From the NCBI GenBank assembly GCA_001793235.1, contig MGHM01000016.1, forward strand, positions 746-64,745: 64,000 nt of DNA, written 5' to 3'. The position numbers and the translations under genes were made by a program. Below the pieces are notes generated by a model. That model worked only from the letters and a program-made list of their open reading frames with translations. It did not search any database and was not told the origin of the DNA. Origin of the DNA: Candidatus Woesebacteria bacterium RIFCSPLOWO2_01_FULL_44_24b (lineage in GTDB: Bacteria; Patescibacteriota; Microgenomatia; UBA8517). This document shows positions 3,156-50,648 of this stretch, one piece after another (within the stretch, counting starts at the first letter, position 1; the number at the start of each line of letters is the position of its first letter).

Positions 3156-3854
3156 ATGTCTGAGAGCGAACCAAAACGGGTGTTTGGGAAAATTGTCCGC
3201 GGTGTTTCAGTGGGTGCAATGGCTGCCTCTTTAGCTTTCGGGCAAGGAGAAGTTTTACGTGCCCAGGATAACCGCCTTTCTGAAGACCAAATTAACACGC
3301 TCGCAAGATATGGGAAGATTAGAATATTTAATGGACCAAATTCTGAAGGCTATTCTGTGGTAGGGTATGGAGGCTTTATTTGGGACGACTCTAATGGAAC
3401 CTATAAATTCTGCTCTATAAGCCATATAACGAGATTTGATGGCCCAATGCAGGGCATGTTTGAAGATAGCGGGGTTGGGAGAGACCCGGCAACTTGTCAT
3501 GTAACTCACCCGACCGAGCTGGGCCGTGAGAATGCTGCTGGCGCGCCGATCATGTCCACGGAAGGTGTTCAGGAAGGTGAAACCATGTTCATAACTGACC
3601 GTGAAGGTGGAGTGGGGTACTTCACCGTTTCAGAGGCGACTGAAAATATGGCCAAGCTTGAAGCGTTAAACCCGGGAAGCGATGGCCTTCCGGAAAATGG
3701 AGACTCAGGTACATTAGTATATAAGCAAAATGCATCGGGGGATATTCTGGCGGTTGGTGCATATAGTGGCCGGGATATTCTTCCCAATCAGGAAGACCCG
3801 GACCATCCATTAGTGTTTTACAATGTAGCCCTATTTAGTGAGAGTGAAAGTTAA
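3156..3854 (+). CDS. putative atypical trypsin-like (S1) serine peptidase
   Basis: His (ATCHVTH), Asp (ITDREGG) and GDSG (ENGDSGTLVY) appear in chymotrypsin-fold order. Weakly hydrophobic N-terminus. Call is tentative. Confidence 0.35.
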   Translation: MSESEPKRVFGKIVRGVSVGAMAASLAFGQGEVLRAQDNRLSEDQINTLARYGKIRIFNGPNSEGYSVVGYGGFIWDDSNGTYKFCSISHITRFDGPMQGMFEDSGVGRDPATCHVTHPTELGRENAAGAPIMSTEGVQEGETMFITDREGGVGYFTVSEATENMAKLEALNPGSDGLPENGDSGTLVYKQNASGDILAVGAYSGRDILPNQEDPDHPLVFYNVALFSESES

Positions 3855-6875: not shown

Positions 6876-7337
6876 ATGTCTGAATGGCTTACAGAAGAAG
6901 GAGGTCAGGGAGTACCAAGTGAACAACCAGAGTTGGTAATCAGCCAATTTGATAAAGATAAAGCCCTTGAAATCTTAAAGAAAGGTGGAGAAGAAGCACA
7001 AAGGGAGCTTCGTAGCTGGAAGTACGACGATTTATCAGATGATGACCACATTGAGGCGATGGCGGAGTTACTACGATTTGAGTTGGCTGAGATAAGGGGC
7101 GAGGCTATAGATGATATTAGGCCGTATGATTTGCAATCATATAAGCAGACGATGTGGGTTAATCCTGTTCATCAGGCTCTATGGGAGGCAACACGTAATC
7201 GGCTTTATCCAGAGGACGATAGGATGAGTTTCCGTGTAAGGTTTGCGGAATGGACTAACTGGTTCCTCCGTGAGGGACACAAAATTTATTCTTATCCCGA
7301 GTTCGAGGAAAGGACGAAGGAGTTTGGGCTTCTTTAG
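6876..7337 (+). CDS. acidic hypothetical protein, possible partner of the EVE-nuclease gene
   Basis: 153 aa, rich in D/E. Starts after a 250-bp non-coding region and is co-oriented with, and 63 nt upstream of, 7401..8525. Confidence 0.45.
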   Translation: MSEWLTEEGGQGVPSEQPELVISQFDKDKALEILKKGGEEAQRELRSWKYDDLSDDDHIEAMAELLRFELAEIRGEAIDDIRPYDLQSYKQTMWVNPVHQALWEATRNRLYPEDDRMSFRVRFAEWTNWFLREGHKIYSYPEFEERTKEFGLL

Positions 7338-7400: not shown

Positions 7401-8525
7401 ATGTTCACAAAAAGGAAAGTATTTTTAGTAGTTGCCGGAGGCGGTCAAGCCGCTGAGCAACACTTTGAAGATACCATAAGAAGAAAGCGTACCCTCGGCG
7501 AAGTTAGAAACTATTTGCCCTCAGAAGAGATCAAAAAATTAGAAGACATTTATCATAGCGCGGAATTTATTGTCTGGGGAGCAGTTCCTGGACCCCAGAA
7601 TGAGGGTAGATGGGAAAAAATGGATGCTGGGGACATAGTTCTTATTTACAACAAAGGGTATATTAAGTTCATAGGCGAGGTGGCTGCTAAGGTTAGGAAT
7701 CAGGAACTTTCAAGATATTTTTGGCGAGAAAATGAAACAGGAAGCACCTGGGAGCTGATGTATTTTATTGTCAACGAAGAAGAAGTGAATGTGCCAATCG
7801 AGAAATTAAATCCATTCTTGGGCTATCAACTTCATTTTAGACCTCAAGGTTTTCTGATGGTTAATCAGAAAGCTGTTGACAATTTCTCTCGTAGTTATGG
7901 TGATGTTTTAGGAGTACTTAAAACTTTAGAGAAAGGCGAAGAACTGATGCGTGTTCCTTCCAGAGCCGAGCTTTTTAGTTCGGAAATCGACGAACAGCTT
8001 GAAAAAAGACCAACTGAACATGATGAAATACAATGGAGGCTCATAAGGCTAGGGCAATTGGCAAAATGTGACATTTGGATTCCCAGGAATGATCAATCAA
8101 AACAATTTGAGGGAATTAGATTCCGAGATCATGTTTTGTCTCAGATTCACGAAACTTTGGATGTGCCGCCATCGATAAAAAACATAGACGTAGTATGGAA
8201 GTTCGGACCATATTCTATCAAGTCAGCTTTCGAAATTGAAAATAGTACATCGGTTTATTCCGGTATATTGAGGCTTTCGGACCTGCGTGCCGAAAATCCC
8301 AATTCTAACTACCCGCTTTTTATTATTGCTGCCGAGGAAAGAAGGAGAAAAGTTTTTAATGAATTGAAGCGGCCAACTTTTTCAGGTGCTTGCTTGAGGC
8401 TTAATGAGGTTATCAACTTTATTGGATATAAAAAAATCAGAGATATAGACGAGTCATATAAAAACTCCAAGGATTTCGACCCGCAAGTTCTTTTTGCGGC
8501 GGGAGAAAGACCTGAAAACCAGTGA
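7401..8525 (+). CDS. EVE/PUA-like domain + restriction-endonuclease-like domain protein (candidate modification-dependent type IV restriction enzyme)
   Basis: The N-terminus (VFLVVAGG ... FIVWGAVPGP ... RWEKMDAGDIVLIYNKGYIKFIGEVAAKV) matches the EVE/PUA-like beta-barrel pattern. The C-terminal half has the helix + IWIPRND + IDVVWKF + EIE arrangement reminiscent of PD-(D/E)xK-like nucleases. Confidence 0.5.
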   Translation: MFTKRKVFLVVAGGGQAAEQHFEDTIRRKRTLGEVRNYLPSEEIKKLEDIYHSAEFIVWGAVPGPQNEGRWEKMDAGDIVLIYNKGYIKFIGEVAAKVRNQELSRYFWRENETGSTWELMYFIVNEEEVNVPIEKLNPFLGYQLHFRPQGFLMVNQKAVDNFSRSYGDVLGVLKTLEKGEELMRVPSRAELFSSEIDEQLEKRPTEHDEIQWRLIRLGQLAKCDIWIPRNDQSKQFEGIRFRDHVLSQIHETLDVPPSIKNIDVVWKFGPYSIKSAFEIENSTSVYSGILRLSDLRAENPNSNYPLFIIAAEERRRKVFNELKRPTFSGACLRLNEVINFIGYKKIRDIDESYKNSKDFDPQVLFAAGERPENQ

Positions 8526-34092: not shown

Positions 34093-35241
34093 ATGAAAGA
34101 TACTGGTTTTATAAAAGGTCTTCTTATCGGTTTTGCCGCACTTGTAGTTATTTTAGTTTCAATGCTTGGCGGAGCTGTAGCCGACAGACTTTTTGTTATA
34201 AAACCACTTGATTCCTTGGTGGATAGGGTAACGCAAACGGGTATCGGCGGCAGCAGACAAATTTTGCGCGAGGAGTCAGCAGTTATTGATGTTGCCGAGC
34301 GAGTTTCTCCATCAGTGGTCACCGTAAGTATTCAAACTCCTCAAAGAAGAGTTCTGCAGTTTGATCCGTTTAACGGCTTTCAGTCGCAAATTCAAGGCGG
34401 AGTGCCTCAGGACATAGGCAGCGGATTTATAGTTAGCGACACGGGACTCATTATTACAAATAAGCATGTGGTTAGCGAAGACACCGAATATAAAATCATA
34501 ACCCAGGATGGCAAGGAGTATGAAGTCAAAGCAATTCACAGGGACCCCGCCAACGACTTGGCAATTTTGGAAACCGCGGCGACGGGTTATAAACCTTTGG
34601 TTTTGGGCAACTCCGAGGAGCTTAAGGTTGGCCAGTTTGTCATTGCCATCGGGACTGCTCTGGGTGAGTTCAGGCATACGGTCACAACCGGTGTGGTCTC
34701 CGGACTCGGGCGCGGTATTACCGCGGGTAGTGCTTACGAGGGCTTCGTTGAGCGGCTTGATAATGTGATTCAGACTGACGCAGCCATAAACCCAGGGAAC
34801 TCGGGTGGGCCACTTCTTAACGCTTCCGGCGAAGTAATAGGAGTAAATGTGGCAGTGGCCTCTGGGGCAGAAAACATTGGTTTTGCGCTTCCCGTCAACC
34901 TTGTGACAGATGGCATTGCCGAGTATCAAAAAAGCGGGACTTTTGCCAGCAAAGCCTTCCTGGGAGTGGAGCATAGTATGATAACCCGCGAGGCTGCGCT
35001 TTTGAATGAAGTTCCTCAGGGAGCTTATGTTTCGGCTGTGGTGCCGGACTCGGCCGCTGAGGTTGCCGGAGTTCAGGAGGGAGACATTATTACTAAAATC
35101 AATGGTGCGTCAGTCACGGACAGCGAGGAAGGGCTCTCGGGCTTAATCAGTGAGCACAAAGTGGGTGATAAAGTGACTCTTGAACTCTGGCGCGACGGCG
35201 AGACTCTTACCCTCGAAGCCACCCTTTCCTCAGGAACGTAG
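34093..35241 (+). CDS. htrA: HtrA/DegP-family serine endoprotease with PDZ domain
   Basis: GSGFIVSDTGLIITNKHVV (His), DLAIL (Asp), GNSGGPLLN (Ser) and a C-terminal PDZ. Confidence 0.85.
   Translation: MKDTGFIKGLLIGFAALVVILVSMLGGAVADRLFVIKPLDSLVDRVTQTGIGGSRQILREESAVIDVAERVSPSVVTVSIQTPQRRVLQFDPFNGFQSQIQGGVPQDIGSGFIVSDTGLIITNKHVVSEDTEYKIITQDGKEYEVKAIHRDPANDLAILETAATGYKPLVLGNSEELKVGQFVIAIGTALGEFRHTVTTGVVSGLGRGITAGSAYEGFVERLDNVIQTDAAINPGNSGGPLLNASGEVIGVNVAVASGAENIGFALPVNLVTDGIAEYQKSGTFASKAFLGVEHSMITREAALLNEVPQGAYVSAVVPDSAAEVAGVQEGDIITKINGASVTDSEEGLSGLISEHKVGDKVTLELWRDGETLTLEATLSSGT
35212..35241 (+). repeat. direct repeat copy 1 (3' end of htrA)
   Basis: ctcGaagccaccctttcctcaggaacGtag. 28 of 30 nt are identical to copy 2 at 35633..35662. 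Confidence 0.8.
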
Positions 35242-35265
35242 CTTTTTATTTGATATAATGAATAT

Positions 35266-35622
35266 ATGGGCGCGACAACAGTTAGCCTAACTGTTAAAAA
35301 TCCAGCGGGTGGCGAGAATGCCTATACTGGGAAATTTTTAGTGGATTCGGGAGCGACTTTTACTGTAGTTCCAGCAACTGAGCTTAAAAAGCTTGGAATA
35401 AAGCCAAAGCGCACAATCATGATTAATCTCGCGGATGGTAGGGTTTTAGAGCGTGAAGTTGGAGATGCGATTTATAAGTACGATGGAATTGAAGCGGCTT
35501 CTCCGGTAATGTTTGGCAAAAAGGGAGATAGTGAGCTACTAGGGATTGTTACTTTGGAATCCTTGGGCCTTTCTCTCGACCCTCTTAGGAGAAAGCTTTA
35601 TCAAGCAACGTTGAGAGGTTGA
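35266..35622 (+). CDS. retropepsin-like (clan AA) aspartic protease
   Basis: FLVDSGATFTVV active-site DSG motif and 118-aa size typical of bacterial single-domain retropepsin-like proteins. Extended -10 TGATATAAT 20 nt upstream. Confidence 0.7.
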   Translation: MGATTVSLTVKNPAGGENAYTGKFLVDSGATFTVVPATELKKLGIKPKRTIMINLADGRVLEREVGDAIYKYDGIEAASPVMFGKKGDSELLGIVTLESLGLSLDPLRRKLYQATLRG

Positions 35623-35632
35623 TTTTTTGTCT

Positions 35633-35662
35633 CTCAAAGCCACCCTTTCCTCAGGAACATAG
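35633..35662 (+). repeat. direct repeat copy 2
   Basis: ctcAaagccaccctttcctcaggaacAtag. Duplicates the htrA 3' end including its stop codon context. Confidence 0.8.
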
Positions 35663-35700
35663 TATTGTAAATCTTCACTGAATAGGATATAAAACAAATT

Positions 35701-36165
35701 ATGAATATTGGGCCAGGAGGAGAGAGGGATTTTGAGTTTGACGCCCCGGCTGAGTTTGAGACTCTCTTTAATGAAACTTTTGGCCCAAAATCAAAATACG
35801 CGCTCGAAGCATTATTGGAATGGTCGAAAAGAGAAAGTGGAAAGTTTGAAGGCCAAGCAGTTTTGGAAATACCCAACCAAAATCTGGATGGAATATCCGT
35901 CTTTTTTGTTATTTCTCCCGGAGAGGAAAGGTTTCAAGTAATTTCTGGAAGATTAACTGAAGACGGTGAGCTATACAGTGATTCTGCAGCGTTTCTCAAA
36001 TCTGACGACTTTAATAATTTTGCTGTCGGAAGAGAGGATGGCGTTGAACACGTAACATTTTATTCAATGGATAGGTCTAAAGCTTTGCGGATTAGGGAAA
36101 CGGGTAGCTTCCAATTTTATGACAGCCTTCCTTCAAAAATAGGTGGAAGGGGAAGAAGGGGTTAA
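35701..36165 (+). CDS. hypothetical protein
   Basis: 154-aa acidic ORF with no recognised motifs. Confidence 0.35.
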   Translation: MNIGPGGERDFEFDAPAEFETLFNETFGPKSKYALEALLEWSKRESGKFEGQAVLEIPNQNLDGISVFFVISPGEERFQVISGRLTEDGELYSDSAAFLKSDDFNNFAVGREDGVEHVTFYSMDRSKALRIRETGSFQFYDSLPSKIGGRGRRG

Positions 36166-36854
36166 TTCAGACTCTGTGTCATCTCAACCACTTTATCCAA
36201 ATTTCCATCAACAATTGCTTCTAAATTTCCAAAACTCTTTCCCAGTCTGTGGTCGGTGACCCTGTCCTGTGGGAAGTTATAAGTTCTTATTTTTTCAGCC
36301 CGCATGCCGCTTCCTATGGCGCTTCGGTAACCTGCAATTTCTTTCATTTTTTTCTGTTCTTCAAGCTCCCAGAGTTTAGCGCGCAGTAAGGCCATGGCAT
36401 TCACACGGTTTTGCTCTTGGAATCTCTCGGTCTGCGCAGTTACCACAATTCCCGTTGGTCTGTGAGTCAGCCTCACGGCTGTGCTGACTTTATTTACATT
36501 TTGGCCACCGTGCCCGCCGGAGCGGTAAAATTGAATGTCAAGATCGCTCGGGTTTACCTTGACTTCACTTTCTGAAATTTCAGGGAGGACCGCGACTGTT
36601 GCAGTTGACGTGTGAACTCGGCCGCGCTTTTCGGTTTCGGGCACGCGCTGGACACGATGCACTCCGGACTCGTATTTTAGTAAATCAAATACACCCGGCC
36701 CCTTTAATTTAAGAGTTTGCTCATCTTGCTGTGCTTTCCATCCTCGTTTAATGGCAAAGCGATAGTACATCCGCAGGAGATCAGAGGCCCAAAGCTTGGC
36801 CTCGTTGCCTCCTGCGGCACCACGGACTTCAATATAGCATGTTTGATTCTCCAT
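36162..36854 (-). CDS. prfA: peptide chain release factor 1 lacking N-terminal domain 1
   Basis: Begins at the RF domain 2 motif (EVRGAAGGNEAKLWASDLLRMY). RF1-type recognition motif region is VQRVPETEKRGRVHTSTATVAVLPE. SGGHGGQNVNKVSTAVRLTHRPTGIVV GGQ loop. C-terminal EKIRTYNFPQDRVTDHR. Only 230 aa. An in-frame TAG lies two codons upstream of the ATG, which is the rpmE stop. Confidence 0.8.
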   Translation of the reverse strand: MENQTCYIEVRGAAGGNEAKLWASDLLRMYYRFAIKRGWKAQQDEQTLKLKGPGVFDLLKYESGVHRVQRVPETEKRGRVHTSTATVAVLPEISESEVKVNPSDLDIQFYRSGGHGGQNVNKVSTAVRLTHRPTGIVVTAQTERFQEQNRVNAMALLRAKLWELEEQKKMKEIAGYRSAIGSGMRAEKIRTYNFPQDRVTDHRLGKSFGNLEAIVDGNLDKVVEMTQSLN

Positions 36855-48476: not shown

Positions 48477-50648
48477 ATGACTACCCCACTTCCTAAACTT
48501 GTGGAGGAATTTTTGGATTACTTGCGTGTTGAGCGAGGCTCCTCTCCCCTAACCCTTAGGAACTACCTCCATTATTTAACCAGGTTCATTGAGTGGCTTG
48601 GTGAGCACAAAATTTCGCAAAATTTAGCCTCAATTTCAGCTGAAAATGTAAGGAAGTACCGCTTGTATTTAAGTAAGCTTGCCTTGTCTCAAAAGACCCA
48701 GGGCTATCATGTAATTGCTCTTCGGTCGTTTTTAAAATGGCTCAATAAAAACGGCTATAAGGCGCTGCCTGCCGAGAACTTGGAACTTCCAAAGATAAAA
48801 GATAGACAAGTATCTTTTTTAAACGGTGAGCAGGTTGACAGGTTGCTTTCGGCTCCTTCTATGAGCTCAATTGTAGGTAAGCGGGACAAGGCGATCTTGG
48901 AAGTTTTGTTTTCAACGGGGCTTAGGGTTTCGGAGTTAACTAAGCTCAACCGCGACAAAATTGACTTGGAACGGCGCGAGTTTGGAGTAGTTGGGAAAGG
49001 GGGGAGAGCAAGGGTAGTATTTCTCTCCTCACGCGCGGCGGAATGGGTGAGCCTTTACTTGGCCGCCCGGCGGGACCACTATTCCCCGCTATTTATTCGC
49101 CACAAGGGCAAAATTGATCCAACAGTGGAGGATGAGAAGATGCGGCTCACTCCTCGCTCGGTCCAGCGGCTTGTAAAAAAATATACAAGAAAAGTAAAAC
49201 TTCCGGTGGATGCTACCCCGCACACGATAAGGCACTGTATTGGTCCAAATACTAGAATTTTCTTAAGTAACTCTATTGACATAGCAAGAGACCTGTATTT
49301 TAGGCAAAACGATATTGAAGCTCGCAGTCTAGGCTTAAATAATTTTTTAGTAAGTAAGAGTAAAGTAATCGGCAAAGAATACCACATAGGCAAAGCGTAT
49401 AGTCTCTGGGCAGATGGGTATGAGCTGGTGTGTTCTAAAAAACACAGAGTTTTTACATTAGCTTTAGAGGATGTTGACGCGGTACAGGTAAATGACTTGA
49501 AAGTTGGGCAATATATTTTGGGCGTGAACAAGGTCTCGTTTAGAGGTACAGCGTTTGTGAAGCCTAAACTGGCACGGCTAATGGGTTATATTTTAGGAGA
49601 CGGCGTTGTCAGTAAGAGCAGGCGCGGAGTTATAATTCATGACAAGGATTTGAGTTTTTTAGAGTTATATCAGAGAATTGTTACAGATGAGTTAAAAACT
49701 CTCTCAAAAATAGAAAAGGCAAAAGGTTCCAACTCATGGATCCTAACTTTTTATTCGGATCAATTTGTTAATTTTCTCCAAAGCGTCGGTATTTTAGGCC
49801 ACGCCAATATAAGGCGTATCCCTGAAAAGCTTATGAATGCTACTGAAGAAGAAATCATAGAGCTACTTGCCGGAATATATGACGCAGAAGGAAATTCCCG
49901 AGGCGACCCAAGATATTTCTCCGCCTCAAAAGAGTTTTTGAAGGATATCCAAATACTTCTTTTGCGATTTGGCATAGATGCTCATTTGCTAGAGCGAAAC
50001 AGAAATGTAAAACTTCCCCAAGGACTTGTTTTTAATCACGACATGTTTACACTTCAAGTTTTGTCCACAAAAGACCAAAAGAACTTTATTAAACTGATTC
50101 CCACTCTAAAGAAAGATGTCCAGGCAAGTGAAGGGTATGGGGAAAAGTTGCCGGTGCAACCACTTCTCCACTCTATTTTTAGGGAAATGCAAAATAAGGA
50201 AAAAGGTCTGGTCCATGCTTTGGAAGTTGAGCTTAATATCAAGTCACTTCGCAATCTAGCGGAAATTGTTCCTGAGAGGAAAACTGTGGGTAAGTTTATT
50301 ACTTTTTTCAAAAATCATGGTTACAAGGGTAAAAAACTGGATTTTCTTAAGAAAATCCATAAAGATAAAAACATAAAGTGGCTTAAGGTCAGAAAAATAA
50401 CCCCAGTTTCCACTTCTGGCCGGTACAGTCTTTTCGACTTTACTCTTTCACCTCATCAGAATTTTATTACAGATGGAATCATAAGCCACAACTCTTACGC
50501 AACGGATTTATTAATAGCAGGGGCGGATTTACGCTCAGTTCAGGAAATGCTTGGCCATAAAAACGTAGCCACTACACAGATTTATACCCATGTCACAAAT
50601 AAACAACTGAAGGCTGTTCATGAACAGTTTCACGGAAGAGGAAAATAG
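48477..50648 (+). CDS. XerC/XerD-family tyrosine recombinase interrupted by a 419-aa intein
   Basis: Exteins: N-terminal core-binding domain ([24 protein letters not shown]), catalytic domain ([15 protein letters not shown], box II PHTIRH | [34 protein letters not shown] with catalytic Tyr). The spliced product is about 304 aa. Confidence 0.85.
49236..50492 (+). mobile_element. intein with LAGLIDADG homing-endonuclease domain
   Basis: Begins with Cys (CIGPNTRIF, block A). Block [12 protein letters not shown]. Two LAGLIDADG motifs ([11 protein letters not shown] and [11 protein letters not shown]). Blocks [27 protein letters not shown] ending in His-Asn. The +1 residue is Ser. Locally AT-rich. 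Confidence 0.85.

Follow-up and report, generated by a model that had tools for sequence, protein, structure and literature searches.

Integrases that insert into the 3' ends of genes, with a replacement tail borne by the incoming element, are known from phage 21 and e14 at icd, from integrative and conjugative or integrative and mobilizable elements (ICE/IME) at rplL, rpsI, and guaA, and from islands at tRNA genes. These elements leave direct repeats of the gene's 3' end and a functional target, may introduce synonymous differences into the tail, and can accrete in tandem; they are kilobases long, and an integrase is encoded by them or accompanies them. The same footprint is present in a 64,000-nt stretch of the genome of Candidatus Woesebacteria bacterium RIFCSPLOWO2_01_FULL_44_24b (contig MGHM01000016.1, positions 746 to 64,745; hereafter the window), where a small cassette with a gene for a retropepsin-like protease (RP) is inserted at the end of the serine protease gene htrA. 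Unlike the elements above, the cassette is only 391 bp long, carries a single protease gene, and has no recombinase nearby.

The minimal mobile elements of Neisseria are hot spots between two conserved genes, the contents of which are exchanged by homologous recombination; a duplicated tail of a flanking gene is not part of the concept. The gap between htrA and prfB resembles these elements in that the same conserved flanking genes enclose differing cassettes (RP and orf154, vapBC, vapC and orf206, or nothing), in the lack of mobility genes, and in the mosaic tract in its flank, but differs in that the tail copies would allow insertion also where the downstream flank is not common to both partners. 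Integron cassettes and the clusters of attC sites lacking integron integrases (CALINs) are likewise small and mostly carry a single open reading frame (ORF), form arrays rich in toxin–antitoxin (TA) modules, and enter at one end, whereas RP cassettes have no attC-like palindrome, are flanked by copies of the tail of a neighbouring gene, and possess their own promoters.

Sequential displacement through illegitimate recombination aided by homology was proposed for the effector–immunity arrays of type VI secretion systems (T6SS) and for rhs loci (Jackson 2009; Kirchberger 2017, PMC5361080). The RP cassettes resemble such rhs, contact-dependent inhibition (CDI), and T6SS loci in having a probable homology anchor in a resident gene, the old 3' end of which is shifted downstream, in the formation of ordered arrays, and in the absence of a recombinase, with arrays spreading by ordinary homologous recombination (PMC5361080). 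Older 3' ends of the anchor stand in series at three of the contig loci compared with the window (designated by L-numbers; L189, L151, and L108), and the window itself contains one displaced tail. The displaced ends of rhs, CDI, and T6SS loci, however, are alternative toxin tips with the immunity genes of one polymorphic system, whereas the RP cassettes have a housekeeping gene or 5S rRNA as their anchor, what is displaced is a tail copy of 30–150 nt without function, and the cargo consists of unrelated, self-promoted small genes (RP, TA modules). What is new are minimal, recombinase-less, self-promoted cassettes with retropepsin-like cargo on the tails of housekeeping genes.

Duplication of the htrA tail

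The last 30 nt of htrA, including the stop codon, recur 421 nt downstream, behind the RP gene, with 28 of 30 positions identical and two G-to-A differences (upstream copy U and downstream copy D; Table 1). This repeat, already reported in a preliminary description of the locus, is borne out by its exact 22-nt core (AAGCCACCCTTTCCTCAGGAAC), which has only these two occurrences in 64 kb even if 3 mismatches are allowed, with 0 expected from 100 shuffles, ruling out a chance or low-complexity repeat. At the protein level, the similarity spans 36 nt, from LTLEATLSSGT plus stop (35206-35241) to LSLKATLSSGT plus stop (35627-35662). The segment between the copies carries an extended -10 promoter and the protease gene, as had been described, but measures 391 nt rather than 390; D follows 10 nt after the end of RP. 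The htrA gene itself is still full length, with 382 aa as in its relatives.

The window matches a groundwater genome of the Candidate Phyla Radiation (CPR; Microgenomates), RIFCSPHIGHO2_01_FULL_44_21 (GCA_001792455.1, MGGP01000029.1). Over positions 34093-36165, sixteen contigs from assemblies of NCBI, ENA, JGI, and Logan agree in every base (100% identity), and their independent assembly rules out an artefact. The preliminary description had also considered that the repeat might belong to a widespread terminator-like motif. The scan found no terminator at the second copy, the fold of the region 35595-35705 is insignificant (z = -0.17), and there is no Rfam match, which together rule out a terminator, a regulatory RNA, and a widespread motif. 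An integron cassette was rejected on the same fold, which is not attC-like, on the absence of an inverted repeat, and on the identity of the repeat as a copy of the htrA tail. Pairing between the last RP codons and the start of the pseudo-tail would give a weak hairpin at 35612-35638 (TTGAGAG-N13-CTCTCAA), but the folding statistics show no significance for it.

Table 1. Features of the window at the htrA–prfB site
Feature	Position	Strand	Basis
htrA (target gene), 382 aa, trypsin-like serine protease with PDZ domain (Trypsin_2 + PDZ)	34093..35241	+	Pfam, synteny
3' part of htrA, high-identity mosaic tract with L178/L179, leading into the cassette	34998..35241	+	Mismatch distribution
Copy U, functional htrA tail including stop TAG, CTCGAAGCCACCCTTTCCTCAGGAACGTAG	35212..35241	+	Protein-level similarity from 35206
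Inserted cassette, 391 nt, promoter and RP gene	35242..35632	+	RP is the sole ORF; no terminal inverted repeats
Extended -10 promoter, TGATATAAT	35251..35259	+	TGnTAnnnT pattern, 6 nt before the ATG of RP
RP, 118 aa, aspartic protease of the retropepsin-like type (clan AA) with a single domain	35266..35622	+	Pfam, motif, predicted fold
Copy D, displaced non-coding htrA pseudo-tail, stop retained, CTCAAAGCCACCCTTTCCTCAGGAACATAG	35633..35662	+	Protein-level similarity from 35627
orf154, lineage-specific ORFan in the rest of the variable gap	35701..36165	+	Found in this lineage only
prfB, 230 aa, conserved right flank of the variable site	36162..36854	-	Synteny

Insertion at a variable site

The order of the genes for S6, single-stranded DNA-binding protein, S18, ctpA, and htrA, followed by the convergent genes prfB, L31, and eamA, is kept in 80 Microgenomates species, and the gap between htrA and prfB is only 0–70 bp in approximately 25 of them. 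Neither RP, nor orf154, nor a second htrA tail was found in the loci of these 80 species at the nucleotide or protein level. The comparison of relatives that the preliminary description had called for thus reveals RP-less sites without a second tail, and the nearest relatives hold other cassettes at the same position: vapC (PIN domain) together with orf206, which is unrelated to orf154, in L177 (HtrA 87% identical) and vapC-vapB in L180 (HtrA 81%). Because the synteny is kept in 80 species without RP or a second tail, and because the nearest relatives hold other cassettes, the 391-bp segment is an insertion at the end of htrA.

Nucleotide and protein searches of 82 RP-less htrA loci, including the vapBC-bearing loci L177 and L180, found no htrA pseudo-tails; among htrA loci, the pseudo-tail is confined to those that bear RP. 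An exact empty allele, in which htrA is directly followed by orf154, was not retrievable, orf154 being an ORFan of one lineage. This ORF was probably the neighbour of htrA before the insertion and lies outside the RP cassette.

Recent transfer between species

RP is present also in L178, of the GCA_964513265.1 lineage, and in L179, with an HtrA identity of 88% and a genome background that is approximately 75% identical to the window at the nucleotide level. Mismatches to these contigs are dense up to 34995, number only 11 between 35025 and 35229, and are absent from 35230 onwards. Identity climbs to approximately 95% at about position 35000 and is 100% from 35230 to the ends of the contigs, which lie inside RP (35442 and 35481). 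The last mismatch (35229) is located inside copy U, and the tract in common with L178 reaches approximately 240 nt upstream of the repeat. Because the cassette is 100% identical between genomes that are only approximately 75% identical elsewhere, the cassette and the mosaic 3' tract of htrA have, as judged from these alignments, crossed between species recently.

The preliminary description had proposed a tiny mobile cassette. The complete identity, the recurrence described below, the occurrence of similar cassettes in unrelated flanks, and the RP-less sites support this reading of a cassette that moves between genomes, as passively mobile cargo. Contig L007 (ERZ28563591 scaffold_3831), which belongs to the same strain, starts at 34998, i.e., at the start of the high-identity tract of L178 and L179 and near the start of the PDZ-coding part of htrA. 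This coincidence may reflect a breakpoint of recombination shared by these contigs, or the presence of a third recombinant strain in the sample.

Recurrence at other conserved genes

Among 80 RP loci from metagenomes and in 8 additional contexts, tail duplications were found at several anchors. A second htrA anchor was found in the Woesebacterium locus L181/182 (HtrA 64%, RP 65% identity), where a 62-nt tail copy begins at the RP stop. Further anchors are clpB in L151 (31 codons including the stop), rplA in L100, and the gene of an AhpC/TSA redoxin (peroxiredoxin) in L131 (91 nt across the stop). The anchor is 5S rRNA in L119, which contains a whole second 5S copy (59 versus 110 bits), and in L108, where a copy of the 5S 3' end plus terminator precedes each of three cassettes. 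The repeats measure 25, 30, 44, 62, ~90, ~117, and ~145 nt, and their targets are unrelated in sequence. Flanking direct repeats are enriched around RP genes (8/71, compared with 7/374 size-matched control genes; Fisher p = 7e-4), and the majority of RP loci have none.

The footprint is not exclusive to RP, as TA cassettes (vapBC, brnTA) in the same arrays carry it as well. In the Microgenomates locus L057, a gene of 175 codons (orf175) is followed at 7665-7708 by a second copy of the murB tail (first copy at 7013-7056), with only synonymous differences between the two, and a second cassette with a 152-aa membrane-like ORF lies between perfect 25-nt direct repeats of non-coding DNA (7637/8252). 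Three groups of RP cassettes (L135/L148; L127/L128/L146/L113; L111/L125/L174/L115/L176) are 80–96.5% identical at the nucleotide level in unrelated flanks; their similarity sets in sharply at the -35 hexamer (around -50 to -60) and ends on the stop codon or just past it. The cassettes of L135 and L148 have no flanking repeat.

The repeats that flank RP in L125 and L111 were excluded as dispersed palindromes similar to repetitive extragenic palindromic (REP) sequences. By visual inspection, the DNA of L125 (5810-6331; repeats at 3849/4408/5149) and L111 is REP-rich and has a gene for a REP-associated tyrosine transposase (RAYT-like; IS200/IS605-type Y1 transposase) nearby; the cassettes between the repeats of these high-GC loci encode HicB-like, RP, and Phd-Doc proteins.

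Serial displacement and the nature of the tails

Series of displaced tails are documented for three loci. In L189, htrA with its present tail (tail0) is followed by vapB-vapC, pseudo-tail 1 (2177-2321), RP, and pseudo-tail 2 (2706-2750). Pseudo-tail 1 ends with LSEFEE and a stop, and RP starts 19 nt later with its promoter TGTTATAAT; pseudo-tail 2 reads KTKKVSATLGEF followed by a stop, E, and another stop. Whereas tail0 uses the codons CTT TCT GAA, pseudo-tail 1 has TTA AGT GAG, which is the codon set of the functional allele in L183. Pseudo-tail 1 was evidently the working tail beside RP until the vapBC module arrived with a new one. In L151, the tail of clpB is followed by brnTA, a tail copy, RP, a full pseudo-tail, vapBC, and another copy; in L108, a 5S rRNA gene is followed by three cassettes. 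The nested pseudo-tails of L189 and L151 are a record of serial insertions, and L108 shows the same stacking. A recombination breakpoint between L189 and L183 was not locatable, the two being too divergent (~76% identity throughout). Pseudo-tail 1 of L189 bears an insert of ~30 GC-rich nucleotides (CACCGGCCCGGAGCCTCTGGCCAGGAGGGC; ~2241-2270) in a genome of 40% GC.

The displaced tails are all in frame, and the stop is retained in 6 of 7. In 4 of the 6 pairs that were aligned, one stop codon is exchanged for another (p ~0.02 under in-situ duplication and neutral decay), and codon changes over the tail pairs are synonymous in 36 and non-synonymous in 21 cases. Switches between the codon families of Ser or Leu occur in L181, L151, and pseudo-tail 1 of L189, and allele-like differences (synonymous, codon-family, or stop-to-stop) are found in L181, L151, L189, and L057. 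Because the tails are in frame and differ by stop-to-stop, synonymous, and codon-family changes, the evidence, although not uniform across loci, favours that they diverged mostly as parts of functional genes, i.e., as putative donor and recipient alleles. The pair in the window, with 1 synonymous and 1 non-synonymous change in 30 nt, is uninformative on the origin of its tail.

Mobility genes and element classes

RP is the sole ORF between 35242 and 35632, leaving no recombinase within the cassette. Searches of the tail-duplication loci for XerD-like and Hin-like genes, with queries of limited sensitivity, gave no tblastn match, and no recombinase family is common to at least 2 RP neighbour genes in the Pfam assignments of immediate neighbours. 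No cognate integrase element was seen within ±5 kb of 86 htrA loci or 80 RP loci in a test of low sensitivity. The only recombinase found in the window (no IntI-specific test was made) is a 723-aa XerD-like tyrosine recombinase of the Xer type, with a Phage_integrase and a SAM-like N-terminal domain (48477..50648, forward strand), approximately 13 kb from the cassette. An in-frame intein that contains a LAGLIDADG homing-endonuclease domain interrupts its gene.

Several classes of elements were rejected. A dif/Xer site would require inverted arms, which the repeat lacks by visual inspection, and the Xer-like gene is 13 kb distant. An integrase-bearing island, prophage, or IME fits the direct repeats of a gene 3' end and the intact target but fails on the absence of a recombinase inside. 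Insertion sequences, transposons, and miniature inverted-repeat transposable elements were excluded by the absence of terminal inverted repeats and of a transposase and by the variable length of the duplications (25 to ~145 nt).

Proposed homology-anchored insertion and its alternatives

A horizontally acquired, self-expressed cassette without a recombinase that was inserted by homology-anchored recombination ("tail displacement") has, in our estimate, somewhat better than an even chance of being the correct explanation. Insertion would have taken place into the last 30–36 nt of htrA. An incoming fragment consisting of the 3' part of htrA, its tail, and the cargo would pair with the resident htrA through the host's homologous recombination, and its far end would be joined illegitimately, or via a short copy of the tail, upstream of the resident stop; the resident tail would thereby be displaced rather than replaced. 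U would then complete the frame of htrA, and D would come to lie behind the cargo as a pseudo-tail, probably followed by the old downstream DNA (orf154, prfB). The 3' end of htrA and the pseudo-tail might act as homology arms for spread into any htrA-bearing genome, whatever lies downstream, and repeated events would stack pseudo-tails in series. Homology-anchored recombination is favoured because there is no recombinase in or beside the cassettes and because the tails often resemble different functional alleles; this route, like the function of D as a homology arm, is what we infer. Of the alternatives left by the preliminary description (insertion by site-specific recombination or duplication-mediated capture), the insertion footprint stands, with no sign of dedicated site-specific recombination.

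Several points weigh against this explanation. With 30–36 nt, D is short for RecA-type pairing, and natural transformability of these CPR bacteria would have to be presumed. The sharp-ended cassettes in unrelated flanks look like a defined element and are not explained by homology anchoring alone. Three htrA-adjacent RP loci (L183/184, L187, and L190) have no pseudo-tail. U and D of the window have a derived C in common that is absent from relatives, as expected of an in-situ duplication or of a very close donor and recipient. The balance of codon changes in the tails is compatible also with duplication followed by divergence, and the 5 tail differences of L131 are without exception non-synonymous. 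This strain yielded neither an intermediate of recombination nor an allele lacking RP, 16 of 16 contigs being identical. In L178 and L179, any copy D and the right edge of the tract would lie beyond the contig ends, and a chimeric join is conceivable.

The footprint of direct repeats at a gene 3' end with an intact target is the classic mark of an integrase, and the tandem arrays with tail copies in L151, L108, and L189 resemble accretion at a single att site. It is therefore conceivable, though unlikely, that the cassette is a non-autonomous integrative element similar to cis-mobilizable elements (CIMEs) or satellites, whose repeats represent attL and attR and whose circular form with a tail-like attP is inserted by a tyrosine or serine recombinase acting in trans. 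The start of the 100% tract with L179 inside U, the sharp ends of the cassettes, and the Xer-like recombinase encoded by the genome would fit such an element. However, searches of limited sensitivity detected no recombinase in or beside some ten tail-duplication loci and none common to the RP neighbours, and the variable repeat lengths and unrelated targets (htrA, clpB, rplA, the redoxin gene, 5S, murB) would require many specificities. The repeat has neither dif-like nor palindromic arms, and the tract in common with L178 extends approximately 240 nt upstream of it, as in homologous recombination.

A transposon-like process, in which RP or a factor in trans inserts the unit by staggered cuts or replicatively and generates long target-site duplications, seems very unlikely. 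It would account for the discrete units with conserved ends in many unrelated contexts, in which RP is the sole constant gene, for the second cassette of L057 in its perfect repeat of non-coding DNA, for the derived base in common between U and D, and for the enrichment of flanking repeats around RP genes. Nevertheless, the retropepsin fold and the DSGA motif of RP are canonical and come without nuclease or DNA-binding features, and TA modules and ORFs of unassigned function bear the same footprint without RP. Moreover, the length of the duplication is not fixed, the older pairs resemble different functional alleles, and most RP loci have no repeat. The related idea that the RP cassettes (promoter and 118-aa gene, ~420 bp, with sharp conserved ends) form a family of minimal mobile elements, for which RP or a dedicated system in trans drives active insertion at 5S rRNA and at conserved-gene 3' ends with long duplications of the target, is distinctly improbable; if true, it would imply a novel chemistry of transposition or integration, or else selfish elements of a new, recombinase-free and "homology-armed" class.

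Mobility would be unnecessary if RP were an old neighbour of htrA in a ctpA-htrA-RP protease cluster, with the tail copy as a scar of local duplication or gene conversion and the absences as losses. RP indeed adjoins or lies near htrA in the Woesebacteria lineages L181, L183, L187, L189, and L190, and the identities of RP and HtrA are similar (64–65%). This reading is disfavoured and highly improbable, since the RP genes of genomes only ~75% identical are 100% identical at the nucleotide level and the nearest relatives lack RP and hold other cassettes. RPs located at rplA and pth are as close to the htrA-linked RPs (69–75%) as these are to each other, the footprint is repeated at five further targets, and L189 contains nested pseudo-tails. 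Furthermore, a neutral relic of 30–62 nt could not track the tail of each lineage over a protein divergence of 35%.

The retropepsin-like protein

RP scores above the Pfam cutoffs for PF13975 (32.9 bits; cutoff 28.2) and PF13650 (31.5 bits; cutoff 24.3). Its nearest NCBIfam model is TIGR03698 (clan_AA_DTGF), but with 44.9 bits, below the cutoff of 57.35, RP is not a member by the curated threshold. The motif D27-S28-G29-A30 is invariant across 34 RP sequences. In the AlphaFold2 (AF2) model (pLDDT 90.7, pTM 0.81), the best Foldseek matches in the PDB are the proteases of HIV-1, FIV, RSV, and XMRV and APRc of Rickettsia, with TM scores (normalised by target length) of at most 0.74 among the best matches (E <= 1e-3). 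RP is the cargo, and fold and motif predict a cytoplasmic, homodimeric aspartic protease. Single-domain retropepsins of bacteria and archaea (TIGR03698; Rickettsia APRc, PDB 5c9b/5c9d/5c9f; RimB) are similar in their size of ~120 aa, the D-S/T-G-A motif, and the predicted HIV-protease-like fold; unlike APRc, RP has no membrane anchor, and no rimK context is present at RP.

The family comprises 4,944 clusters at 50% identity, nearly all of them solitary proteins of 115–130 aa, in hosts with a GC content of 33–72%. RP genes nearly always have their own promoter: in 22 of the 29 low-GC loci, TGnTAnnnT is located 5–10 nt ahead of the ATG, and a TTGAC...TACACT promoter was recognized by visual inspection at many high-GC loci. 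The extended -10 in the window is not listed by a simple sigma-70 scan, which requires a -35; from its position, the RP transcript would be of the leaderless type.

No RP homologues were found in the phage, plasmid, and viral-contig collections INPHARED, PLSDB, and IMG/VR, on which ground phage or plasmid cargo was rejected. PADLOC returned no match for RP, and membership in a defence system was rejected on this basis. A type II TA module was rejected as well, because RP is solitary between the repeats and has no PADLOC match; it merely co-resides with TA cassettes in arrays. A literature search for links between retropepsin-like proteins and TA systems, or for PF13975 and PF13650 in bacteria, yielded nothing relevant. 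The one lead is that, in Sulfolobales, a small protein (~100 aa) with a retropepsin domain appears in a list of associates of type III-D CRISPR loci (PMC3973734), a possible hint that solitary retropepsins may belong to defence or accessory gene neighbourhoods.

Implications for gene acquisition

The RP cassettes indicate that single genes can enter and spread without a mobility gene by riding on the spare tail of a conserved gene, in CPR bacteria and several other phyla. If the pseudo-tail acts as a homology arm, the cassettes would be portable, with a host range that depends on how widely the anchor (5S rRNA, htrA, clpB, rplA) is conserved, and pseudo-tails would be fossils by which serial gene acquisitions can be searched for. 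The locus also draws attention to solitary retropepsin-like proteins with promoters of their own, a large family whose members behave like accessory cargo of the TA type. For genome annotation, short duplicated gene ends behind small ORFs are to be regarded as insertion scars rather than regulatory motifs.

Observations on prfB

The prfB product of the window (~230 aa, with PCRF and RF-1 matches) is encoded directly downstream of the L31 gene and measures 228–245 aa in relatives. On this basis, the usual N-terminal domain of release factor 2 appears to be missing from both the window protein and its relatives. In two unrelated lineages with a GC content of 43% and 65%, RP is located directly behind prfB (L161, 493-1886; L145, 4-975); the RP gene of L161 is enclosed by prfB and the L31 gene.

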